From the NCBI RefSeq assembly GCF_006345805.1, contig NC_043015.1:50654001-50718000 (forward strand): a DNA stretch of 64,000 bases, given 5' to 3'. The DNA is from Octopus sinensis. Taxonomy: Eukaryota. The stretch's first letter is position 1. Each line of letters starts with the position of its first letter. Positions 5,611-62,003 of this stretch are shown piece by piece. A program made the translations under genes and the position numbers. A model generated the notes under the pieces. That model was not told the DNA's origin. It made no database searches and saw nothing but the letters and a program-made list of their open reading frames with translations.

Positions 5611-5833
5611 GATATATTGATTTATATATGTATGTAAGTATGTATATATGTATGTATGTGTGTATGTATATCAACTAATATGAACATATTTCAATTGTTT
5701 TATCAGATGTTTTAAAGCAGCAGAATATTTAAAAGAGAAGAGGGAAGGAGCAGAAAAATGATGCGATGCGTTAAAATACTCCATCTTGCAGTGCAAAAAG
5801 ACCAATTATGTTAATTATACTATACAGCAGAAA

Positions 5834-5977
5834 TATATTGATAATACAGTGTGTGTGTGTATGTGTGTGAGTGCGTCTGTAATGTACGTTAGTGTAATGG
5901 TAGCACACTTGTCGCAAATACATAGAGGTATGGGTTTGTGTCCCATGCATACAGCAAACCCTCTGTATACAATAATT

Positions 5978-6028
<51 letters not shown>

Positions 6029-6034
6029 TATTAT

Positions 6035-6090
<56 letters not shown>

Positions 6091-6291
6091 CACATATGTA
6101 TGTATATATATATATATTGATAAAACGGTAAGATAACAAAAGAAAGAAAGAGACCTCAATATTATGTAAATAGAGGAAATTTATCTATACAATATGTTAC
6201 ATTACTCGGTAGTCAAGATAAAACTCTGTGGATTTCGGCATCTGAAACTCAGAGTTTTATCTTGACTACCGAGTAATGTAACATATTGTAT

Positions 6292-6327
<36 letters not shown>

Positions 6328-6328
6328 A

Positions 6329-6363
<35 letters not shown>

Positions 6364-6435
6364 TATATATATATATATATAATATATACATATATATATA
6401 TATATATAATAATATAATAATAATAATAATAATAA

Positions 6436-6471
<36 letters not shown>

Positions 6472-6610
6472 AATTATTGTATACAGAGGGTTTGCTGTAC
6501 GCATGGGACACAAACCCATACCTCTATGTATTTGCGACAAGTGTGCTACCATTACACTAACGTACATTATACACACACTCACACACATACACACACACAC
6601 TGTATTATCA

Positions 6611-6615
<5 letters not shown>
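5834..6615. repeat. Large inverted duplication (arms ~5834-6118 and ~6297-6615) around a 47-bp perfect hairpin
   Basis: Unique sequence 5834-5985 is the reverse complement of 6465-6615 with a few substitutions. Inner perfect arms are 6182-6228 and 6250-6296. Confidence 0.9.
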
Positions 6616-6647
<32 letters not shown>

Positions 6648-20972: not shown

Positions 20973-21869
20973 TATAAAACTTAACCTGATTAATCCTTTA
21001 TTTTGTTTGTTTGCTTTTTCTTTACATCCCCTGGCCCGTTTTGGTCACCCTATTATTGCCCCATTTTTCTTCAATGCACCCCTGGATCTTTCCACCACCC
21101 CCAGTGGGCCAGTTACCACCCACTTCGGGAACCACTGATCTAAGGTAATGCTCCAGCATGACCTCACCCAATGGTTGAAACAAATAAATACTAAAATAAA
21201 TGAAATTCTGAGTCAACAAGGAAGACTCTATGTGGTCACATAGCTTGCTAGAAATACTAACCAAAGTTCCATCACACCACACCTTACTACTTCAAAGAAG
21301 GAAGGACACTGGTTAATAAAGGTAGTATTTAAATTTATGGTGTCTGAAAGGCGAAAAAAGGATGTTTTTAAATAGGACAAGACAAAGTCCTTGTTAAAAC
21401 CATAAAACAAATACGAAAAGAAGAAGGATCATTATATTAGGAATGTCTTTGATCACAGAACTTCTCAAAGAAATCTGACCTGAGGCTAATCATCACCATT
21501 GTCAACAATAACAACAACAATATTATGAAGAATGTGAAAATGACTGAAGCAAAATTGTCTCCTCTTAAGAGACTGTTGTTTATGACAGCTTTATAATATG
21601 ATACCAAGATCAGAGAATTCCAGAAATTCAGTGGTAAATGTGTGTAGATGGTGGAGGGCAGAGGGCGGGGTGTGGAGAAGAAGGAGAGAAGAAGGTGTGT
21701 AAGAATACATGGTAAGATGCTTGCTATACCTAACTTTGATTTAAATGAATAAATATGCAAAACCAGCCTGAAGAATAAACGTGGCATGAATTATAACCAA
21801 ACCTTCTTCAGATGACACGGAGCAGGATGTGGACGCGATGCTTGTGTGTGTGCGTGTGTTTGTGTGTAT

Positions 21870-23293
21870 GTGTGTGTGTGTGTGTGTAAGAAGACGTATG
21901 ATGGTACAGTAACATTAACAGCTGAGAAACATGAACAGTAAATTGCAGAGGATGCACAGTTATTGGAGAAGAATCACTTCAGGTTGACTATGTAATGGTA
22001 ATAATGCTAACGATATATTACAAAAGGTGAGCGCAGGTGAGTTGAATGGAAAATGTGTTAACCCTTTCGTGACAACATTTCTAATGAAATACAAAGCTTA
22101 AGTTTCAATTAGTTCTGGAAATAATCAAGTATTTCAAAGATTTGGTTTAGTAAGCAAGCTTGTACTTCATTCATCGGTATAATATATTAAACCAGTGTTT
22201 TGAATACAGATTAACAAAAGGTTCTTAAGATCGATGGAATTTCAATGGAGGGTTTTAATTTAGATATGAATATTCTAGATTAGGTAGGTTGTGTTAGAAA
22301 AACTATGGTGGTACCAGGTGGATTGGTTATCAAAAGAGTTAAGGTGTGTTTATGAAATTAATAAGTATTAAGAAATAAATAAACATGAAATAAAAAAAAT
22401 CAATTTAATATACACTTGACTGACACTGTCTGCTATAAATATGAAGAACTGAAGCCATTTAATTATGTAAATAAGTGATGTGAATTAAAATTTTAAATTA
22501 AGTTATATGACATATCAGTTACTATATATCTGTGAGATTACACAGATACACACATATAGATTGTGTGTGTGTGTATGTGTATGTGTGTGTGTGTGTGTGT
22601 GTGGTGTGTGTGTGTGTAAGAAGACGTATGATGGTACAGTAACATTAACAGCTGAGAAACATGAACAGTAAATTGCAGAGGATGCACAGTTATTGGAGAA
22701 GAATCACTTCAGGTTGACTATGTAATGGTAATAATGCTAACGATATATTACAAAAGGTGAGCGCAGGTGAGTTGAATGGAAAATGTGTTAACCCTTTCGT
22801 GACAACATTTCTAATGAAATACAAAGCTTAAGTTTCAATTAGTTCTGGAAATAATCAAGTATTTCAAAGATTTGGTTTAGTAAGCAAGCTTGTACTTCAT
22901 TCATCGGTATAATATATTAAACCAGTGTTTTGAATACAGATTAACAAAAGGTTCTTAAGATCGATGGAATTTCAATGGAGGGTTTTAATTTAGATATGAA
23001 TATTCTAGATTAGGTAGGTTTGTGTTAGAAAAACTATGGGTGGTACCAGGTGGATTGGTTATCAAAAGAGTTAAGGTGTGTTTATGAAATTAATAAGTAT
23101 TAAGAAATAAATAAACATGAAATAAAAAAAATCAATTTAATATACACTTGACTGACACTGTCTGCTATAAATATGAAGAACTGAAGCCATTTAATTATGT
23201 AAATAAGTGATGTGAATTAAAATTTTAAATTAAGTTATATGACATATCAGTTACTATATATCTGTGAGATTACACAGATACACACATATAGAT

Positions 23294-23324
<31 letters not shown>

Positions 23325-23330
23325 GTGTGT
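21870..23330 (+). repeat. Near-identical ~730-bp tandem duplication bounded by (TG)n
   Basis: AAGACGTATG at 21891 and 22621. Copies appear to differ only by single-base indels in short runs and by TG-tract length. Confidence 0.95.
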
Positions 23331-23390
23331 GTGTGTGTGTGTGTATACTCACATACATGTATCTCTCTCTATCTCTCTCCCTCTATATAT

Positions 23391-24218: not shown

Positions 24219-24267
<49 letters not shown>

Positions 24268-24269
<2 letters not shown>

Positions 24270-24837
24270 CGAGGGTGAGTCAAAAAGCAATGCCATTTTG
24301 TTTAGGACAGGTATAATTACCAACACAGGAACATGTATTATACATCAAAATGAAGCTGGTCCTCTGTGAATCACATCCCTACTCCTCAGCATAGTCACCA
24401 TTTCTCTCAATAGCAATGTTCCACCTTCAAATGAGAACATGTATCCCTACTCCGTAAAATTCTGTTGACTGTTCTTTGAGCCACTTCTTCACTACAGTTT
24501 TCACTTCCTCATCACTGGAATAATGTTTGCTTCTCAAACCCTCTTCCATGGGGCCAAAGAGACGATAGTCTAGTGACGATGATAGTCCAGTGACAAGGAA
24601 GTGAAAACTGTAGTGAAGAAGTGGCTCAAAGAACAATCAACAGAATTTTACGGGGCAGGGATACATGCTCTCATTCGAAGGTGGAACATTGCTATTGAGA
24701 GAAACGGTGACTATGTTGAGAAGTAGGGATGTGATCCACAGAGGACGAGCTTCATTTTGATATATGATACATGTTCCTGTGTTGGTAATTATACCTGTCC
24801 TAAACAAAATGGCATTACTTTTTGACTCACCCTCATA
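24268..24837. mobile_element. Mariner-derived fold-back MITE built from two transposase 3' ends
   Basis: TIR TACGAGGGTGAGTCAAAAAG with TA TSDs. Arms encode mariner C-terminal sequence (DYRLFGPMEEGLRSKHYSSDEEVKTVVKKWLKEQ on the minus arm; ...IRRWNIAIERNGDYVEK* on the plus arm). Confidence 0.9.
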
Positions 24838-25579
24838 TAATAAAACTGAAAGACATTGATTTCCAGTATTCAGAGTTGCCCATTTACAATCATCGACAGG
24901 TAAACTGAGCCTGGTTGACACTTGCCCAAGGTGCCCACACGGTGGAACTGAACCCAGGACCATGGGATTAGGAAGCAAATTTCTTACCACACAGCCACAA
25001 CAACACCTACATGACAAAACACATATAAATGAAGTCCTCTACTTCAAACAAAATATTGATTCTATCCAAAGATTGGCTTCGATAGATAGATCTTCATTAC
25101 TTCAAGAAAAAGATATACGAACGTTATTGGAATCGGTCAGTTATATGTAGAATTATCATTCATTCAAAATTATTTAAATTTATGCATCTATTTTGCATAA
25201 GTTGTCGGAAACTGGACAGAAAACCCATCTACAACGGAACAATTATAATTAGATTGGAATTCAGAGATATGGTGTTCTTTATCTGGGAATCTCGTTTATT
25301 ATTCAAATTTCGTGATTTATTACAGCTTCTGTAATAAGATAATAGATATTGCAATTGATAAGATATTTGCAAACAGCTTTGGGTAATAGTGAAAGCCATA
25401 AATATATCTCTTTAATGAGAAAATAAACGAACCTCTACACGGAGTCGTTTGATTTGACTTGCTAGAAAAAGCAGAGCTAGATAATTCTAAAATCATATCA
25501 TATCTGAATAAAAAAATAAAGATAAAGAATAAAACAAAATGTACATCAGGCAATGTTATCCAAGCTGTATGGTGATGAT

Positions 25580-43292: not shown

Positions 43293-43503
43293 AGTTCTAT
43301 ATTTAAGAGATGAGGAATTATGTACACTATTTACATTTGATGGATATTTGTCCTCATCTTGTTTGTATTTAACATGTTTCAGCTGATATACCCTCCAGTC
43401 TTCATCAGGTGTCTTGGAGAAATTTCAAACCTGGGTTCTCATTCCTAGGGTATTTTTTGATGTTATCATTTTTTTGATATTCTCATTCCTAAGGCATTTT
43501 TGA

Positions 43504-43544
<41 letters not shown>

Positions 43545-43614
43545 TCACTGTCTGAAATCAAACTCGGAATCTTGGGGTTAGTTTCCCGTGCTCTTAACAA
43601 CAACAACAATAATA

Positions 43615-43678
<64 letters not shown>

Positions 43679-43829
43679 ATCGAAAAATAGCTTAGGAATG
43701 AGAACCCAGGTTCGAAATTTCCCCAAGACACCTGATGAAGGCTGGAGAGTATATCAGCCGAAACTTTGTGTTAACAACAAACAAGATGAGGACAAATATC
43801 TGTCAAATGTAAATAATGTAAATAATGTA
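43293..43829. mobile_element. Inverted pair of the tRNA-head plus hammerhead element (family H)
   Basis: Minus arm with a damaged HHR (~43371-43412) and partial tRNA head (43541-43598). Plus arm HHR ACAC-CTGATGA-AGGCTG...CAGCC-GAAA-CTTT-GTGT at 43728-43771. Confidence 0.8.
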
Positions 43830-49236: not shown

Positions 49237-50614
49237 CGTCCCCAGAGCCGGAACCAATCAAGGGGTAGCTGGAGTCAGTAAAACTATACTGACTCTAACT
49301 CCAACTCACGGTATCTTTATTCTTTAAAATAAACCAGTTTTAACATATAGGCCTACTCAAAGTACAAGCATATGCATATGCTTTATGAAATACGTAGACC
49401 AGAATCACTTAATTACATAAAGAGGAGTCAGAGTCAAAGCTTCTGTTTCAACTCCACAGACTTGCTTTACATCCCCATAACTTAGCAGTTTGGCAAAAGA
49501 GACCAATAGAATAAGTACCAGGCTTAATATTAGATTGGTCTTAGAGTCGTATTTTATGGATCCATGGAAAGTATTTGGGTTCGATGTATTTCTCGCAAGA
49601 AACAGCAAAGCTTCTTTCTCTGACATTTTACATAGTGCAGCCCACATCAGAGAACGTATGGTAAACAAAATAGGAATTTTGAAAGAAGTACCTATAAAAT
49701 TAGCTTTTGAGCATCAAATGAGCATTTTAAATGGCGGTGCCCCAGCATGGCCACAGCTCATAAGCTGAAACTGGAAAAATCAAAAATCAAATCAAAATCA
49801 AATGGTTTAGTGGGGTCCACCAGAATAAAATGGTAATCAAAGGGGCCCATAGATAAAAAAAAATGGGTGAAAATCACAGGCGTAGATCATGTACAAAGAA
49901 CCTTTTTCAGTACCAGGAGCAAATTGCAAGAAGCTAGGAGGGCAACATCCATGCTGCGAAAAATAATGAATCTTCACTTTTGCAAATTTACATAAAATTA
50001 CTCTTTTGGCATTAAGGGTTGGCGGGGGGGGGGGCTTCTTCCCCCCCCTCTCACTCTTTTTGCATTCTTTTGGTTTGCGGTCACAAATTAAAAAAGATTG
50101 ACACTTTCGCAATATCCAGATAGGCATGCCAAAAAGACACCCAACCATTTTTTTTTTTGCTTTTTTAAAGAGTTTCTTTGGATTCCTGTGTTTTAACAGC
50201 AGTGATTACAACTTCCACCCCCACCCCCCACCAAAAAAAGGAAGGAAAAAAAAGTTATTCAGATTGTCTCACATTCAAATTTTTCTTTTTCTTTTTTATT
50301 TTTTACATTTTTTGAAATCTTTTTTTGAAGAAGGCAGAAGATACCACATTTAAATATAACGATATTATGGTTCCATTGGGGGTAAAAAAAACCATTTTCA
50401 AAATTCCCATTTTTTAATACTGATTGCTCGTGATAATTTCTCAATTTCATTTTATGGTCATAAACCAAAAGAATGATGGGTTTTTTCTCCTTTCCGCCAT
50501 ATGCTTTATTTTTCTCTCTTTTAGTATTTCTCAGTATGTAGTTTCACATTTGTTGGCGACAAGGGGTTCCTCGTCATCTTGAATGTAGGCTCCTTCATTG
50601 GTTAATAGAAAGAA

Positions 50615-50659
<45 letters not shown>

Positions 50660-50839
50660 AATTTACATAATGTTATTAGTTTGACAACCATTAAATAATT
50701 ACCAATGCACAAACACACGGACATTAAAATAATGCAGTGTACCGGAGTACATTTACATGTTTTAAACATGAATTTTTCAATGTTCATGCGGCGGTTGATG
50801 TATCAATAACTTCTTAACGGTTGTCAAACGAACACCATT

Positions 50840-51457
50840 ATGCAAATTAGCTCAGCTGTGCGTGAACGAAGGCATTTTTCTATGTGACTATATGAACTGT
50901 TTGCTGCCGGTTGCATGACAACAGACACTCTAAGAGCTAATCTTTTTGAAAATTTCTACACAGATGTAGTTTTTCATGCTAATTTCAAAAATCATAACCG
51001 TTTTGGGGAGAGATTATAAATTAAAATATTGGAAATCTTTAAAGACTGAAATTTTCTAATTCCAGCCAATCAGATGTAGCCATTTTCGACACACCGGAAG
51101 TCACAATAGCTCCAAACTGCACGTTTGAGTAATTTCAACCAAACACTTGGAGTGTTTCCACATGAATATTTATTTCACAGCAAGACTGGAAATGCTTAAA
51201 ATATAATCATACTTCTGTGTATCATTTAAAAAAATGATAATGTTACACAGGTAATTTCTGGTAGTACCCAACGCATACACACTCTCTACATCCTGATTTA
51301 AATGTAGGAGTCATTCGTCAAATGTTACCTACTTTTCTGGAAGCCTCTGTGCTAGAAAGAACAACCAAACCTCCTTCCAATCAGAAGCCTTAGAAAACAA
51401 TATGGTGGATAACTTGTTACTAGGTTGAGCAATCTTTCGTATTCATACATGACGTCA
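50840..51457. promoter_or_regulatory. Candidate promoter or enhancer motif cluster
   Basis: ATGCAAAT 50840, CAGCTG 50853, GTTGCATGACAAC 50910, AGCCAATCAG 51064, GCCATTTT 51079, ACCGGAAGT 51093, TGACGTCA 51450. Confidence 0.35.
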
Positions 51458-51534
51458 GCAATTTACAACACTCATACACATACATACCTACGTACACATT
51501 GCTTTGTATTTTTTTGCAATTCGTTTATGTCTAT

Positions 51535-51730
51535 ACAATTGCAGCATGGAAGGTGTTTATAAGCCATTTAAGAAAATATTTTGGCAAAATAAATTTAAAT
51601 GTTGAAGTGAATCTAACGGTTTTTGTGCATTTCTTAAATGGCTTATAAACGCCTTCCACGCTGCAATTGTTTTCGTTCCAGCACACAATTCCAGATCAGG
51701 TCACTTGCTATGCAAGTACATCTACATAAT
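51535..51730. mobile_element. Short fold-back element with one-sided tail (PLE-like architecture)
   Basis: Inverted arms 51535-51575 and 51630-51670, followed by unique sequence on the right. Confidence 0.5.
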
Positions 51731-52644
51731 ATGTTTATACATTTTTTTAATAATTTATATAATTCTTTTTAATCTGTTTATTTAATTTTGTTCTTCCTGT
51801 TCCTTGAAAGCAACACACACACACATCACATACACACACCACACACCCTGCCTCCTTTCTCTACCAGTCAACAGTGTGTATGTATGTATATGTATTTAGT
51901 TATGTATGCATATGTGTGTGTTTGAATGTATATTTGTTTGTTCAGCTCTCTCGTGCAAATCAAAGACAACATTGATAATCCCCGACACATGAAAAAAAAA
52001 TTAAAGAAATAAAAATTTCTGTAAATTGTCAAACATAGTTATGACATCACAAATAGTAAATGACTGCTCCGATGCACGGGGATGTGATGGGATGGTCACG
52101 ATTGGAATGTCTAATTAATCATAGCTCTGCTTATTTAGTGCTGACCCAGAGTTCAAACAACATAAACAGATTTGCTGATGCCAGCCAACAAGGTTCTCTA
52201 CCAGGTTGCTCGACCTGCTAAAAATAGTAACTGCATCCTACCATTTTGAAAAAATAATAATAATACATTGGATAATGAAGTCTGTATCACTCCATCTTCA
52301 AAAAATAAAAGAAAAGAAAATGGGGCAGGCACAACTTGAACACTTGTTGTTTTTTTTTAATTAATTGAAATGTGCTTGATCAGCAATGACTTTGGGTTAC
52401 AACAACAATAATGATAATGTCTTGAAGTTAGTCAGAAAACCAGTCAACTAGTTGAACAGCAGCACATGGCACCTTTGGGGGAGTTCATGCCACTAAAGCA
52501 TTCGGGTTAGGTTTCTAATTTAAGGATATCTATATTCTTCACTCTTACCTTTACAAGGTCTTGGAGGCCTTGTAAATGGTCATAGGAACAACATTACCCC
52601 TCTTGATTCTTGACTAAAAGTTTTTTAAAAAAATGTTAACTAAG

Positions 52645-53040
52645 TCACAGGCACGACTGCGTGCTAAGAAGTTTGCTTTCCAACCACATGGTTCTGAGTT
52701 CAGTCCCACTGCATGGCACCTTGGGTAAGTGTCTTTTATTATAGTCTTGGGCAGACCAAGCCCTTGTGAGTGGATTTAGTAGACAGAAACTGAGAGAAGC
52801 TCATCGTATATATTTAGGTGTATGTGTGTTTGTGTCTGTGTTTATTTCTCACCACTGCTTGACAACCGGTGTTGGTGTGCTTACATCCCCATAACTTAGT
52901 GGTTCGGCAAAATCAGACCAATAGAATATGTACTAGTCTTAAAATAAGTAGGTACTGGGGTTGATTCATTTGACTAAAAATTCTTGAAGGTGGTGCTCCA
53001 GTATGGCCGCAATCTAATGACTGAAACAAGATAAAAAGAT
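52645..53040 (+). mobile_element. SINE family A, degenerate
   Basis: Matches the family A consensus. Its 5' half is duplicated with flank at 53721-53987. Confidence 0.8.
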
Positions 53041-54279
53041 GACTATTTTATTAAAATCTAGGAGTTTAGATTTTGTCTTGTTTTTGTTTTTTTTTTGTTT
53101 GCATTGGTCTATACTTTCCTATTGATTTTTTTTTTCCAATTTTCTAGATAATGGTACATTTTAAAAGTTTTTCTCTAGAAAACATTTATTTAACATGTCT
53201 GTAGTGAACTGAGGACATCTTTTTTTTTTTTACCTTTATATTGGTATTGCCTTAGTCATTATACTGCCATTGATAATTATGTTGAAGGTAAAGAGACTGC
53301 ATTCTTAGACAAGAATGGACTCAACAATGGATGATTCTATTTCAAACTGTTTATATATTACGTACGCACAAGTAAATTCATATATTGAAAAAGAAAAAAA
53401 AACACACACACACGTTTCTACGGTAATCTATGTAATTCTTAAAGCTTTACAATATGGAAGATAAAAAGAATGCCTTAGTTTGGACTGTTTGCATGACAGA
53501 TGTACTTTATTCTTTGTATATCGACATCATAATATAAGGGTAATAATTACCCCTTTGTTGAACATATATGTAAACAGTGGCTGTTATGCAAGGACAAGTT
53601 GAAGAAATTCATAGAACATCTCGTGGAAGACTGGTGATAGAGTGCCATTTCTATATAGTAATAGGCATCTGTTGATCTCGAGAGACCATAGAGCTGCACC
53701 TGAAAAAATTGTGGTGCAAAATATCTATATTCTTCACTCCTACCCGTCTTGGAGGCCTTGTAAATGGTCATAGGAACAACATTACCCCTCTTGACTCTTG
53801 ACTAAAAGTTAAAAAAAAAAAGTTAACTAAGGCACGGGTATGGCTGCATGGTAAGAAGTTTACTTTCCAACCACATGGTTCTGGGTTCAGTCCCACTGCA
53901 TGGCACCTTGGTTAAGTGTCTTCTACTATAGCCTTGGGCAGACCAAACCCTTGTGAGTGGATTTAGTAGACAGAAACTGAGAGCAGCCACTGATGGTAGT
54001 GCAGCATCTGCAGTAGCTGTAGAGATCCACATGGGAGTGGCAGTCATCCATAGTGACTGCATTTGAAGGAGATCTCTGCCAGCACTACTGGTTTGCTTTA
54101 ACTTCGTTACTATGGCAACAGTCTGGATACTTACTGATCAGACCACATATACATATATATATATATATATAATACGTTTAAATATTTGTTGTGCAAGATT
54201 TATTGGCTAAACTGGCAAAATGACCATTCCGAAATATAACAATATATATATATATATATAATATATATATATTATATAT

Positions 54280-54448
54280 ATTCAACAATTTAAGGAATGG
54301 CCTTGATAGGTCATTCGACCCACCTATCAAGGCCATTCCTTAATATTGTTGAATGTATATTATATAGTCTGTTGACTATTTTTTCTTTCTCACTGGACCG
54401 CTGGTGGCGAAAAAATTTATCTTGAATTTTTTGCTACCCTGATATTGA

Positions 54449-54450
<2 letters not shown>
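54280..54450. mobile_element. Short fold-back element in (TA)n with one-sided tail
   Basis: ATTCAACAAT-TTAAGGAATGGCCTTGATAGGT / ACCTATCAAGGCCATTCCTTAA-TATTGTTGAAT around a 10-nt loop. Confidence 0.55.
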
Positions 54451-54483
<33 letters not shown>

Positions 54484-54590
54484 ATACATAAATATATATA
54501 CATACATATCTATACATATATACACATATATATATATCCATACATATATATATATATACATACATATCTATACATATACATATGCATATA

Positions 54591-54653
<63 letters not shown>

Positions 54654-54922
54654 ATGTATATGCTAAGGTGAGTTGTATGGTAGATGTGAATAGCTAAAGA
54701 AGGAAAGCAACAACTCTTGAGGTAAAAAAAATGAAAATGAAGAAAAAAAATAATCTTCAACAATTTTTTTAATGGGAAGCTAAGTACAAAAAAAAATTAC
54801 TCTAGAATTGTATTGAATTGTCAAATAAATTCGTTCGTTTTTTCTTCTTTTTATTTTATTCCATTTACTTTAATCATTTCCAACGTTGTACGAATTAACA
54901 CCCACAAAATAACAACAACAAC

Positions 54923-54970
<48 letters not shown>

Positions 54971-54972
54971 TA

Positions 54973-55004
<32 letters not shown>

Positions 55005-55469
55005 AAGTTTATCGTAGTGATTTATGTAGCTCCATTCTTCATCTACAACTTTTGTCAATCGTTTTTGCGAAATCTGAAAAACTTCTTTTCCTCTTTTCAG
55101 ACATTGACGATGGAGTGCCAAATAGAAAGAAGAAAAAAAAAATTAATAAATAAACGAATTTATCCTGACGACCCAATAAAGCCTTTGGCAGTACTACAGT
55201 TGATTTGAAAAGTGTGTAAAAACTTGTCTTGACTATTTTTTTTCTGAGTAACTATTAGAACAAGTCTTCACAGCTACGTTATAACATCCATCAATAATTA
55301 ATATAGTTCTCTATCTATATTTAGTGTATGTATATATATGTGTCTGTATATATATATATCTATATAATAATATATATATATATATATAATATTATATATA
55401 TATACTAAATATTTAGTATATATATATATATACATATATATAGTGTATATATATATATATTATATAGTG

Positions 55470-55505
<36 letters not shown>

Positions 55506-55686
55506 GTGTATATATATATATATTTAGTATATATATATAATATTTATAGCTATGAAACGTACGTAGTGTTTTTACTTATTATATTATATATTTATCATTC
55601 ATTTTATACTTTTTGAGATCTAGTATAAGTTATATATTAAAAAAAAATTATAATTATAATTATATATATATATATATATATATATT

Positions 55687-56173
55687 AACGTAAGGTGTAC
55701 TAGCCACTGAATGTGGCTAGCCACTGGGGGTGTGTACTAGCCACATTCAGATGGCTAGTACACCTTACGTTGTTGAGCGGTTACTGTTTATATCTCGTTC
55801 AGAGATTTATTATTGCTTTCAGACACTTTTTCTAAATCAGTGACAGTGGTTGCTGTGAAAAACGTTATATATTATTTGCAGGGGGACTCCTTCATCGAAG
55901 ACCGGTGCTTACCATGCGTTGACGAGAGGCAATTACCTTGAAACTATAGTCCGTATGTAGTACTTAGGTCTTCGAGGGAGGATGACCTCCCTTTGCAAAT
56001 AACACAAGGGCACTGAGATAGTGTCTAAAGTCCATCTGGTGACGTTGATCGCCTGGGGCTAAAAGCATCAGGAACACACCACCCCCAGTGGCTAGCCACA
56101 TTCAGATGGCTAGTACACCTTACGTTGTCGAGCGGTTACTGTTTATATCTCGTTCAGAGATTTATTATTGCTT
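55687..56173 (+). mobile_element. Retrozyme-like or PLE pLTR-like element: 355-nt monomer with 82-bp terminal direct repeat and inverted 5' piece
   Basis: Direct repeat 55737-55818 equals 56092-56173 with one mismatch. 55687-55732 is an inverted copy of ~56080-56126. Flanked by (TA)n. Confidence 0.8.
55905..55963 (+). ncRNA. Type I hammerhead ribozyme motif with extended stem I (C3U in this copy)
   Basis: GTGCT-TAC-CATGCG-TTGACGA-GAGG(CAATTA)CCTT-GAAA-CTATAG-TC^CGTATG-T-AGTAC. GUC cleavage triplet ends at 55951. Confidence 0.8.
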
Positions 56174-56269
56174 ATATATATATTGTTATATTGTTATTTA
56201 TGTATTGCCTTATGTCTATCACTGTTTGAGTTGCATAATAGTGGTTTTATCTCTAATTCATATTTCATA

Positions 56270-56307
<38 letters not shown>

Positions 56308-56506
56308 CTATAAGAATTTCCAAGGAATTTTTCAAGAACATTACGAAAAATAGCTGTTTCATTTGTTCCTGCTTATTCAGTTTCATTTGGCAACTTCAGA
56401 ATCAAGACATGGCATATTGCTAGGAAACCTGAAAGATGATCTAGTTATCGAAATTGAGATAAATTATTCTGCCAGTAATGTAAACATTTTTCAGCTTGGT
56501 TTAAAC

Positions 56507-56842
56507 CAGTGTTTCTCAACAGGGGTCCAAATAAGATTTTGTTGTTAAAATTAACGTGCAACAACTTGGTTATACTTTTACAATACACAAAATCATCATC
56601 ATCATCATCATCGTCGTTTAACGTTCGCTTTCCATGCTAGCATGGGTTGGATGGTTTGACTGTGGGCTGGCGAACCACATGGCTGCATCAAGGTCCAGAG
56701 TTTCTACAGCTGGATGCCTTTCCTAATGCCAACCACTCTGGGAGTGTAGTGGAGTGGTTAGGAAGGGCATCCAGCTGTAGAAATATTAAATTTTTTTTTG
56801 TATACAATTCTCATTAATACTTAATCATGAAATTACAATAGG

Positions 56843-56899
<57 letters not shown>

Positions 56900-57027
56900 T
56901 GTATGTATTTATGTATGTATACAGACACACACACACACACACAAACAGTGAATGGTTATGGAGGTTTGGCAAAATATAGCAGGATATAAAAGGGATCCAT
57001 AGGTAAAAAATAGTTGAGGAACTAGTG
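56507..57027. mobile_element. hAT MITE with nested insertions
   Basis: CAGTGTTTCTCAAC / GTTGAGGAACTAGTG ends, TSD GTTTAAAC/GTCTAAAC. Confidence 0.65.
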
Positions 57028-57035
57028 GTCTAAAC

Positions 57036-57270
57036 CAGTACTACTCAAAGTGATGGTCCGCAGACTGGTGCCGGTACGCAGCGGGTTTCCAGAAATGAAA
57101 GAAACATTATAAAATGCTTATGCAATATTGTATTATTTGTTTACGAAATAAATATAAGATAAAAAAAAAATGTCAACTTTTTTTACAAAGAAATATGACC
57201 GGTCCCTGGCAAATTGGAAAAAATAAATAAAACTGCCGGTACGTCACATCAGATAGTTTGAGACGCACTG
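57036..57270. mobile_element. hAT (Charlie-like) MITE
   Basis: CAGTACTACTCAAA / TTTGAGACGCACTG ends, perfect 8-bp TSD GTCTAAAC at 57028-57035 and 57271-57278. Confidence 0.85.
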
Positions 57271-57317
57271 GTCTAAACCATAAGAGACATTTGTTCAATT
57301 ACGAAGTAGTAGAAGGC

Positions 57318-57845
57318 CACAGGAGTGGCTGTGTGGTAAGTAGCTTGCTTACCAACCACATGGTTCTGGGTTCAGTCTCACTGTGTGGCACCTTAGGCAA
57401 GTGTCTTCTACTGTAGCCTCGGGCCGACCAAAGCCTTGTGAGTGGATCTGATAGACGGAAACTGAAAGAAGCCCATCTTATATATGTATATGTATATATA
57501 TATGTGTGTTTGTGTGTGTATATGGTGTGTTTATGTCCCCGTAACTTAGTGGTTTGGCAAAAGAGACAGATAGAATAAGTACCAGGCTTACAAAGAATAA
57601 GTCCTGGGGTCGATTTGCACACACACATACATGTATACATATATATATGCATACATACACACATATATTACAAAAAGCGGTAAGTAACACCAAAATGCAC
57701 GCCAAGATGCAAAACTTTTCAGTGTGCACCGAATCGCAGTAGAAAGGCATGTAGGTGTAGAAATGGAAAAACGTGATTGACAGCAGAAGGTGGTGCTCCA
57801 GTATGGCCGCAGTCAAATGGCTGGAATGAGTAAAAGAGTAAGTAG
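57318..57845 (+). mobile_element. SINE family A interrupted by a ~170-bp insert (57620-57788)
   Basis: Consensus breaks after GTCGATTTGC and resumes at AAGGTGGTGCTCCAG. Confidence 0.8.
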
Positions 57846-58647
57846 AAGGCCAACCGAAACAAATTTCTTGAGATGTCTGGGCACTGGTTTTAATACACAC
57901 ATACACACACACATTGAAATGCGACCATGCTGGAGTACCGTCTCGAAATGTTTAGCTAAACATATTGACTCGAGTACTAATTGTACTGATCTCCTTTGCT
58001 GAGCCATTAGGTTACGGGGACGAAAACATAATAAACATCAGTTGCCAAGCGGTATGGGACAAACAGACAGACACACTCACACACATGTACAAATATATAT
58101 ATATATCATCATCATCATCATCATCATCATTTAGCATCCGTTTTCCATGCTAGCATGGGTTGGACGGTTCAACTGGGGTCTGTGAAGCTGGAAGGCTTCA
58201 TCAGGCCCAGTCAGATCTGGCAGTGTTTCTACGGCTGGATGCCCTTCCTAACGCCAACCACTCTGTGAGTGTAGTGGGTGCTTTTTACGTGCCACCCGCA
58301 CATATATATATGTATACATACACACATATATTACAAAAAGCGGTAAGTAACACCAAAATGCATGCCAAGATGCAGAACTTTGCAGTGTGCACCGAATCGC
58401 AGTAGAAAGGTATGTAGGTGCAGAAATGGAAAAACGTGATTGACAGCAGAATAAAATTGGATTTATAAATCTGTTTTCCTTATTATTAATTTATCATCTC
58501 TTCTCTACCGACAACATGCAGCCTCTATAGAGACAAATGGATTTACCAATGTGAAGATCTACCGAGGATAATAAATTAAACTAGCTGGAGTTTTTCTGCT
58601 TTCTCTCTCTCTCTCTCTCTCTCTCTAGATATATATATATATATATA

Positions 58648-59063
58648 GGCGCAGGAGTGGCTGTGTGGTAAGTAGCTTGCTAACCAACCACATGGTTCCG
58701 GGTTCAGTCTCACTGCGTGGCATCTTGGGCAAGTGTCTTCTGCTATAGCCCCGGGCCAACCAATGCCTTGTGAGTGGATTTGGTAGACGGAAACTGAAAG
58801 AAGCCTGTCGTATATATGTATATATATATATGTATGTGTGTGTGTGTGTGTGTGTTTGTGTGTCTGTGTTTGTCCCGCTAGCATTGCTTGACAACCGATG
58901 CTTGTGTGTTTACGTCCCCGTCACTTAGCGGTTCGGCAAAAGAGACCGATAGAATAAGTACTGGGCTTACAAAGAATAAGTCCTGGAGTCGATTTGCTTG
59001 ACTAAAGGTGGTGCTCCAGCATGGCCGCAGTCAACTGACTGAAACAAGTAAAAGAGTAAAAGA

Positions 59064-59065
<2 letters not shown>
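58648..59065 (+). mobile_element. SINE family A, full length, close to consensus
   Basis: GGCGCAGGAGTGGCTGTGTGGTAAG...GACTGAAACAAGTAAAAGAGTAAAAGAG. Confidence 0.9.
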
Positions 59066-59100
<35 letters not shown>

Positions 59101-59262
59101 TATATGTAACTATAAATAAGAGTATCTGAGAGACACCACCATGCCGAAATAGCAGTCAGACCCTGACTCTAAAAACCACCTAAAATGTTCATATCGCACT
59201 ATGAGGTAAAACAGAGAGACGAAATAAACTAGCAAAAAGATATTAATGGATAATTCAAGATC

Positions 59263-59309
59263 CTGACGAAAGCAGAGCTTATTTGAAGCAAAGCTAGAAA
59301 TCCAGGATC
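59263..59309 (+). ncRNA. Hammerhead core lacking its 5' stem I, in the loop of hairpin 1 (duplicate at 60033-60079)
   Basis: CTGACGA-AAGC...GCTA-GAAA-TCCAGGA-TC, with near-palindromic stem III ATCC-A-GGAT. Confidence 0.55.
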
Positions 59310-59689
59310 TTGAATTATCCATTAATATCTTTTTGCTAGTTTATTTTATCTCTCTGTCTTACCTCATAGTGCGATATGAACATTTTAGGTGGTTTTTTAG
59401 AGTCAGGGTTTGACTGCTATTTCGGCATGGTGGTGTCTCTCAGATACCTTTATTTATAGTTGTAAAAAATTATTACCTTTGTATGGTATTTATTCCCATG
59501 CTGGCCACTTGATAATATCGATATTTAAATATCGATATTATCCTTATTTATAAATTTATATATATATATATACTTTATTTAAAGCAGCAGAAAATTCAAC
59601 AAAACCTGAGTTTCCGTTGCCGTTCATCGGACAGTTTTTGCTAGAATGGAACCGATATGTCGAATTGACATATCGGTTCCATTCTAGCA

Positions 59690-59736
59690 AAAACTGTCTG
59701 ATGAACGGCAACGGGAAATTCAGAGTAACAGGTTTT
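59690..59736 (+). ncRNA. Hammerhead ribozyme motif (duplicate at ~60460-60505)
   Basis: AAAACTGT-CTGATGA-ACG(GCAA)CGG-GAAA-TTCAGAG-TA-ACAGGTTTT, same family as 1025-1071. Confidence 0.7.
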
Positions 59737-59842
59737 GTTGAATTTTCTGCTGCTTTAAATAAAGCATATTACTCTACGACTGGTCTTTGAGTACTCTTTT
59801 TTCCACCTTGTTTCACATTTACGTGTTTACTCCGGTATATAT

Positions 59843-59875
<33 letters not shown>

Positions 59876-60602
59876 GTAACTATAAATAAGAGTATCTGAG
59901 AGACACCACCATGCCGAAATAGCAGTCAGACCCTGACTCTAAAAACCACCTAAAATGTTCATATCGCACTATGAGGTAAAACAGAGAGACGAAATAAACT
60001 AGCAAAAAGATATTAATGGATAATTCAAGATCCTGACGAAAGCAGAGCTTATTTGAAGCAAAGCTAGAAATCCAGGATCTTGAATTATCCATTAATATCT
60101 TTTTGCTAGTTTATTTTATCTCTCTGTCTTACCTCATAGTGCGATATGAACATTTTAGGTGGTTTTTTAGAGTCAGGGTTTGACTGCTATTTCGGCATGG
60201 TGGTGTCTCTCAGATACCTTTATTTATAGTTGTAAAAAATTATTACCTTTGTATGGTATTTATTCCCATGCTGGCCACTTGATAATATCGATATTTAAAT
60301 ATCGATATTATCCTTATTTATAAATTTATATATATATATATACTTTATTTAAAGCAGCAGAAAATTCAACAAAACCTGAGTTTCCGTTGCCGTTCATCGG
60401 ACAGTTTTTGCTAGAATGGAACCGATATGTCGAATTGACATATCGGTTCCATTCTAGCAAAAACTGTCTGATGAACGGCAACGGGAAATCAGAGTAACAG
60501 GTTTTGTTGAATTTTCTGCTGCTTTAAATAAAGCATATTACTCTACGACTGGTCTTTGAGTACTCTTTTTTCCACCTTGTTTCACATTTACGTGTTTACT
60601 CC

Positions 60603-60663
<61 letters not shown>

Positions 60664-60748
60664 GTATATGTATATATATAAGAATTTTTTGCATAATGAG
60701 ATAAAAAACCAAGGCTGAGTAGATATTAGAACATTTATAGATAGAAGG

Positions 60749-60798
60749 TCTTACAGCTGTTTCCAGGATATTTATTAATTATATCCCTTCATCGGAGA
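60749..60798 (-). ncRNA. Hammerhead ribozyme motif (U4C) in a PLE-like element (~60680-61075)
   Basis: Reverse complement reads TCT-CCGATGA-AG-GGATAT(AATTAATAA)ATATCC-TG-GAAA-CAGCTG-TA-AGA. Confidence 0.7.
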
Positions 60799-61396
60799 GG
60801 GTGTAAGAGGATGGTTAAGTCATAGTTAGTTTAGATGTGATACAAAATAGAGAGTGAGGTGGAGGAAAGAAAATAGATGCGAGATATGTATGGTTAATGA
60901 AGTTGTAAGTCCATTTTTTAGGCAGAATGGTATACATGTAGTATTCTAATACCCTATGAGTAAAGTCCAAAAGTCCGACAGAGTTTAAAATGGGTCCTTC
61001 CAAATATAGAGTTTATACACAATGTAAGATTCCCTTATGAGTGAGACCCAGCAGTTTTTAAACTTGGTCATTCCATATATATATATATATATATATATAT
61101 GGGCGTGGCTCATATATATTAGCAAAATGTCTCTAAGCTACCTTAAAATTATCACAATAAATACGTGCCGAATTCGGATACACACACACACACATGACAG
61201 GCTTTCACACAGTTTCCTTCAACCAAATTCACGCACAAGTAATTGGTCAGCTTGGAGTCCTAACCACATGGTTCAAGGTTCAGTCCTACTGCTTGGATCT
61301 TTAAGTAAGTGTCTGCTAGAATACTATATCGCCTCAAACTGACCAAAGCTTTGTGAGTGGATTTGGTAGGCGGAAATGCACATACATATTACATTT

Positions 61397-61961
61397 CAGT
61401 TCTATATTTAAGAGATGAGGAATTATGTACATTACTTATTTTATTTACACATTACGGATATTTGTCCTCACCTTGTTTGTTGTTAACACAACATTTCGGC
61501 TGATATATCCTCCAGCCTTCATCAGGTGTCTTGGGAAATTTCGAACCTGGGTTCTCATTCCTAAGGTATTTTTCGATGTTGTTGTTGTTGTTGTTGTTGT
61601 TATTATAATAATAATAATAATTATTATTATTTTTATTATTATTATTCAGGTCACTGCCTGGAATCGGGTTAGTAACCCCAAGATTCCGAGTGTTCGATTC
61701 TAGGCAGTGACCTGAATAATAATAATAATAATAATTCGTTCGTTTATTGGCCACAAGGGCTAACAAAAATCAATTAAAACATAAAGGGACAAAACACAGG
61801 AGGAAAGTTACAAAGGGTTTTGTCCGTTTGAAAAAGTCCGTGTACAAAAGCAGGATAATAACGAAATATAAGTAACGATTAAAACTCCCAAAAGGGGGAG
61901 GGGCTTCGAAAGGTTACTCGTGGAAAAATAATAATAATAATAACAACAACAACAACAACAA

Positions 61962-62003
<42 letters not shown>

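Follow-up and report, generated by a model that had tools for sequence, protein, structure and literature searches.

Among the closest described systems are the metazoan non-LTR retrozymes, whose units measure 350–390 nt in mussel and 330/350 nt in axolotl (Cervera and de la Pena 2020, PMC7229834). A link between retrozymes and Penelope-like elements (PLEs) was proposed in that paper and in a review (PMC7761336); for vertebrate retrozymes it has been argued from trees, and eight of the nine elements tested there did not cut (bioRxiv 10.64898/2026.07.22.740005). PLE insertions themselves display partial tandems, an inverted 5' copy, a 30–40-bp tail and a bias toward microsatellites (PMC8557442). 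In vitro, a purified PLE initiates reverse transcription internally, at two positions that delimit the tail; it cuts both strands of AT-rich DNA, and ribozyme cleavage is not required (PMC11167929). For the hammerhead core, U3–A8 is a known active covariant (PMC3088659).

The window, that is, the whole 64,000-nt stretch of Octopus sinensis DNA that was analysed, comes from a genome of 2.72 Gb and carries an insert of 487 bases at 55687–56173 (window positions; features are on the plus strand unless stated otherwise). The insert consists of 1.23 head-to-tail units of 355 nt and an inverted 5' piece, and it lies in a TA tract. It is likely a non-autonomous non-LTR retrozyme for whose copying a PLE supplied the reverse transcriptase and the GIY-YIG endonuclease.

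An earlier sequence-only reading of this locus had described about 1.2 tandem monomers, and the 82-bp direct repeat was confirmed at a period of 355 with one mismatch (55737–55818 versus 56092–56173). The first copy is a 5'-truncated partial unit, the last 82 nt of the monomer, and gives a pseudo-LTR-like redundancy; the full non-coding unit follows at 55819–56173 and terminates at the 'long' 3' end of the family. Stops occur in all three frames after the hammerhead site, the unit has no open frame, and no PLE-protein match was found in the unit or in the 64-kb window. The inverted 5' fragment that had been reported was also recovered: 55687–55735, on the minus strand, reverse-matches 56077–56126, and its start coincides with unit position 308, the 'short' 3' end of the family. 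The gap between the two fixed 3' ends is spanned by a 47-nt 'tail' (56127–56173), the most conserved part of the superfamily. Directly 5' of the short end lies a hairpin (56092–56113), and the inversion junction crosses its arms, which would supply the homology by which the inverted piece joins the direct piece. A probable 12-bp target duplication (left copy 55675–55686, right copy 56173–56184) is TA-rich and so by itself not resolvable.

The TA tract, into which insertion had been proposed, is present, with the refinement that it sits within another AT-rich repeat. The left part of this host repeat (55541–55686) is AT-rich and contains the 3' half of a minimal hammerhead; the right part (56174–56272) is contiguous with the left one in empty-site copies (loci L175 and L190), where the flanks of the window insert meet. 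The host repeat, seen also at L180, L181 and L188, is an AT-rich sequence of about 500 nt. It has a minimal hammerhead and inverted pairs, its two 3' ends are separated by about 80 nt, and it probably represents a further terminal repeat of the PLE type. It is adjoined by at least five insertions of the retrozyme (L001, L012, L017, L057, L162). Elsewhere in the window, tandem duplications of about 770–825 nt with 99% identity occur at 59064–60657, which is composed of inverted repeats, and at 21843–23344. Self-inverted (palindromic) repeats of 500–800 nt, MITE-like or inverted PLE ends, were found at 5833–6616, 24266–24839 and 43317–43826.

The letters of the type I hammerhead proposed earlier, with its GUC site and 6-bp stem I, were verified: the ribozyme occupies 55913–55957 and the site ends at C 55951, after which the cut is predicted. 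Stem I is made of CATGCG (55913–55918) and CGTATG (55952–55957), and the core reads UUGACGA (55919–55925), with U3 at 55919 and G8 at 55924. Stem II (GAGG/CCUU, loop CAAUUA) also has a G–U wobble as its closing pair (G10.1–U11.1), and is followed by GAAA, the palindrome CUAUAG (helix III) and the GUC site. A pattern scan of both strands of the window found no second hammerhead, leaving 55913–55957 alone. An Rfam scan of 50000–62000 gave no hammerhead model match at E ≤ 1; it returned 52 matches, none at the gathering score, the miRNA ones being sub-threshold hairpins. A near-perfect 95-nt hairpin between TA tracts lies at 54270–54364, with low-scoring miRNA model matches only.

The three outer helices described before are located where they had been placed and form in the predicted fold. 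Folding of the circularised 355-mer yielded −112.7 kcal/mol; relative to 60 dinucleotide-shuffled sequences z was −4.2, and for the minus strand it was −3.3. The predicted circle is a branched structure in which a single long rod holds the ribozyme, with 65% of bases paired. The rod is predicted at 55872–56002 with the hammerhead at its tip, and its pairing is kept across sister families. Pairing probabilities in the window unit were 0.79–1.0 for helix I and 0.74–0.78 for helix II, and constraining the hammerhead core to its open form cost 3.4 kcal/mol. Three families have three different helix III palindromes, an arrangement that suits the dimeric cleavage reported for type I hammerheads of metazoans (PMC4209133); the dimer is the form in which cutting is predicted to work best. 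In most groups helix II has a weak base. An axolotl retrozyme mismatched at this place still cuts, and does so better when dimeric (PMC7229834), so that weakening of the ribozyme need not mean loss of activity.

A genome search with the unit gave at least 114 matches (40 scored of 2548 candidates), including head-to-tail dimers and trimers. The exact 19-nt core motif occurred 225 times genome-wide with U3–G8 and not once in its C3 version. When positions 3 and 8 were left free, 210 core matches were obtained, and the first 100 listed comprised 100 with U3, 99 with G8 and 1 with A8. Given these counts, the wobble core is ancestral to the spread of the family and is not decay of the window copy. 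The C3U change noticed in the window copy is therefore real, but it is fixed in the family and not specific to this copy. A canonical CUGANGA core, the absence of which had been named as a possible refutation, is indeed lacking in the 355-nt family, and a compensated U3–A8 core stands in just 1 of the first 100 listed; both occur in the sister families. Searches that require CUGANGA miss the 355-nt family altogether. Mean divergence between insertions was 5.2%, which makes the family fairly young.

A 3–8 wobble such as the U3–G8 core is predicted to slow hammerhead cutting; the 355-nt family may thus have spread while self-cutting weakly or not at all. In the literature accessible to the search, no report of a natural U3–G8 hammerhead or of the cleavage rate of such a core was found. 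Contigs of four runs, presumed to be RNA although this is not on record, covered 30, 30, 30 and 24 of 30 bins of the unit. The head-to-tail joint was present in the contigs of two of the four runs; genomic tandems share this joint, and such contigs reveal neither starts nor circles. One contig (run X1) reads U3–A8 at window positions 55923–55924 on a 355-nt family background.

The tail motif had 2028 exact matches in the genome, and sister families 70–80% identical to the 355-nt family were found with C3–G8 or U3–A8 cores. Family B (352 nt, 71% identical; L095:5436-5772 and L100–L118) has C3–G8 in nearly all listed cores and shares the two fixed 3' ends of the 355-nt family; its core is the canonical CUGAUGA, and it is the best candidate for active cleavage and circles. 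A set with the loop CAAAUA (about 80% identical) gave 234 matches, and a hand count of the first 100 listed cores yielded 65 U3–A8, 19 C3–G8, 8 C3–A8, 7 U3–G8 and 1 A3–A8; the seven U3–G8 copies may be intermediates. Sister groups with U3–A8, C3–G8 and mismatched C3–A8 cores were seen at L123, L131, L156 and L227, of which L131 and L227 carry U3–A8 and L156, like L100, carries C3–G8, and a more distant family that shares the tail and has a different helix II at L087:91-418.

Across these cores the predicted 3–8 pair covaries, and the 355-nt lineage retains only the U–G wobble. In a covariation set of 24 chosen units from four groups, into which no C3–A8 unit passed the filter, 90% of cells paired, compared with 84% in shuffled and 37–48% in slid alignments. 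Double-change cells numbered 63 versus 21.5 in shuffles, although relatedness inflates these measures, and pairs with double changes (11 versus 9.1) were not above shuffles. The covariation shows selection on the predicted ribozyme fold within the superfamily. In a core-masked tree of 36 of 99 units, which a second tree of 42 of 60 units resembled, the 355-nt family came out as a clade with a support of 100 and a branch of 0.123; its placement inside the U3–A8 copies had a support of only 44–75. By parsimony its core region is two changes away from U3–A8 and four from the C3–G8 sister. This nesting and, in part, the parsimony result suggest the order C3–G8 to U3–A8 to U3–G8 for the core.

The anatomy of the insertions was examined in 48 independent cases (60 loci minus 12 duplicates), namely 26 best matches, which are biased toward full-length copies, and 22 picked by the core motif. 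The results showed that 70 of 75 outer 3' ends fell at two fixed sites 47 nt apart, unit positions 304–311 (n=32) and 349–355 (n=38), while 21 outer 5' ends were scattered over unit positions 1 to 324. The collected genomic copies hence contradict the permuted ends that had been expected. A 5' inversion was present in 27 of the 48 insertions, and by hand count 22 of these 27 paired a long with a short end, as the window insert does. The pattern-picked sample alone behaved likewise (32 of 34 ends at the fixed sites, 9 of 10 inversions long plus short). Outside TA runs, target duplications of 10–16 bp accompanied 12 of 48 insertions, compared with 6 of 2256 mismatched flank pairs; a further 15 lay within TA runs, where a control rate of 17% makes them uninformative. 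The flanks had a GC content of 15%, and 26 of the 48 insertions lay beside (TA)4.

The 355-nt family thus has the traits of PLE-type insertions: a partial tandem, a 5' copy in inverted orientation, a tail that occupies one end and an AT-rich or microsatellite target. Mobilisation by a PLE is likely because the two fixed 3' ends, the 5' inversions and the target duplications match the PLE pattern. The inverted piece noticed at the outset is real and is explained by a PLE-type insertion, a mechanism that had not been considered then. Tandem copies would be transcribed, and a PLE protein would bind the conserved 3' part of the RNA, nick both strands of AT-rich DNA about 12 bp apart and start cDNA synthesis internally, at two positions separated by 47 nt. 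Copying passes the hammerhead site into the next unit, as the copies show, so that the template would be an uncut multimer or a ligated circle. If both strands were primed, the two cDNAs could be joined back to back through short homology, yielding a long-ended direct and a short-ended inverted part such as the window insert contains.

To assess the nature of the template, 74 loci were selected on the tail motif, irrespective of their ribozyme. Only 3 of 119 5' starts lay within 5 nt of the first base past the cut, about 5 being expected from the neighbouring density, and many pieces read through the cut site into the next unit. Since there was no pile-up of 5' starts at the cut and since read-through occurred, cut linear monomers did not serve as the principal template; the data agree with either a ligated circle or an uncut multimer. 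In family B, a post hoc hand count found 4 of 45 truncated pieces starting 0–4 nt from the cut (about 1 expected), and these near-cut starts did not recur in the tail-picked sample. Units within one insertion diverged by 2.1% when direct, after removal of two pairs that involved a neighbouring sister-family copy in L015, and by 2.3% when inverted, versus the 5.2% between insertions, which fits a circle or a multimer alike. The sequence-only reading was right to propose a retrozyme-like unit that arose by reverse transcription of a more-than-unit RNA.

That reading also regarded the insert as the candidate trace of a circular RNA replicon whose copies would open at permuted positions. More-than-unit copies and a stable circular fold would accord with this, circle formation is described for the retrozymes of mussel, coral and axolotl (PMC7229834), and a circle as template is compatible with our data. 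The fixed 3' ends and the family-wide wobble core speak against it, as does the scan of the window, in which one hammerhead was found, on one strand only; there was no sign of replication from RNA to RNA, and nothing that we observed supports a replicon. We regard it as quite improbable.

At least 147 GIY-YIG matches were found in the genome (150 scored of 5029 candidates), with intact frames of 775–883 residues; the two that were scanned contained GIY-YIG and a reverse transcriptase (RT) just below the Pfam cut-off. Intact PLE frames with RT and, C-terminally, GIY-YIG were located at L091, L092, L094 (781-residue family) and, on the minus strand, at L095:2245-4569. Copies of the 781-residue family are numerous and nearly identical, and its 3' repeat contains a minimal U3–A8 hammerhead. 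At 38 GIY-YIG loci drawn from these matches, blastn and a unit profile detected no unit-like sequence except inserted retrozyme copies. A 71% match beside the L095 PLE frame was rejected as a partner, being a sister retrozyme inserted in (TA)n. The host repeat was not accepted as one either, its tail being longer (about 80 nt) and a PLE-protein match being found at 1 of 25 loci.

Alternatively, the unit might be nothing more than the pseudo-LTR of an autonomous PLE with a body that escaped detection. The PLE-like insertion pattern would suit this explanation, and Xenopus retrozymes are related to pLTRs (bioRxiv 10.64898/2026.07.22.740005). However, the units join tail to head directly, 6 of 134 loci had PLE-protein matches (two of them being one place), the flanks reveal no common body, and the ribozyme is full and tertiary-stabilised whereas those in the autonomous elements seen here are minimal. 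A pseudo-LTR origin is therefore very unlikely.

Target duplications and 5' truncation are also marks of LINEs, and a SINE-like element copied by a LINE could acquire inversions through twin priming; the internal starts of twin priming are variable, whereas the inverted part here begins at one fixed place. Animal retrozymes have been termed SINE-like with an unknown partner (review PMC7761336). The 3' end of the octopus unit has neither poly(A) nor a simple repeat, and the two fixed ends and head-to-tail multimers likewise argue against a LINE, which leaves its chances remote. Finally, a satellite or DNA-level duplication with a relic ribozyme is hardly credible: tandem units exist and local amplification has been discussed (bioRxiv 10.64898/2026.07.22.740005), but the copies are dispersed over all large contigs, the longest has about 3.6 units, empty-site copies occur, and the target duplications largely refute this explanation.

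With retrozyme mobilisation by a PLE as the preferred reading, a wider proposal can be made, which we hold only tentatively. It states that the U3–G8 lineage, its core having passed from C3–G8 through U3–A8 to U3–G8, lost most of its self-cleavage and yet kept spreading, to hundreds of sites. This would be natural proof that animal retrozymes are mobilised by Penelope proteins, with uncut RNA as the template and two fixed internal starts, the circle being a by-product and not an obligatory step. The earlier link between PLEs and retrozymes came from co-occurrence and trees; the junctions described here add support at the level of mechanism, that is, two fixed starts, paired long and short ends, and target duplications. 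In the main texts searched, we found no such junction pattern for retrozymes and no retrozymes of this animal group. One genome also offers a natural series of cores (C3–G8, U3–A8, U3–G8, C3–A8) in otherwise similar units, which permits direct comparison of cleavage rate, circle level and copy success. The findings bear on how animal retrozymes move and on whether ribozyme and circular RNA are needed for it.

Compared with the metazoan retrozymes as described in the accessible text of PMC7229834, the octopus family shares a short non-coding unit, here of 355 nt, in head-to-tail copies, a type I hammerhead with a short palindromic helix III, low GC, target duplications of more than 4 bp and PLEs in the same genome. 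It differs from them in the family-wide U3–G8, where a canonical core would be expected of a retrozyme, and in its short dispersed insertions, 5' inversions and two fixed 3' ends; cleavage and circles are described for those retrozymes, whereas the octopus family is known here from DNA sequence. Natural U3–A8 hammerheads (Perreault 2011, PMC3088659; Cercyon PLE, PMC4209133) carry the same 3–8 change as the U3–A8 sister, unlike the 355-nt lineage, which is fixed for an uncompensated U3–G8 wobble. Partial tandems, an inverted 5' copy, a tail with a hammerhead upstream of it and AT-rich or microsatellite targets are shared with EN+ PLEs (Craig et al. 2021, PMC8557442; PAc, Frangieh et al. 2024, PMC11167929). 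In contrast with these, the 355-nt unit has no RT or endonuclease frame, its hammerhead is full and not minimal, its tail measures 47 nt versus 30–40 bp (PMC8557442), and it has no sequence match to the PLEs examined. Chlamys MRC1 (PMC8557442) and the vertebrate retrozymes (bioRxiv 10.64898/2026.07.22.740005) are likewise short, non-coding, multicopy head-to-tail elements attributed to PLE machinery. They are tied to their partners by sequence similarity or trees, whereas the 355-nt family is tied to PLEs by the anatomy of its junctions.
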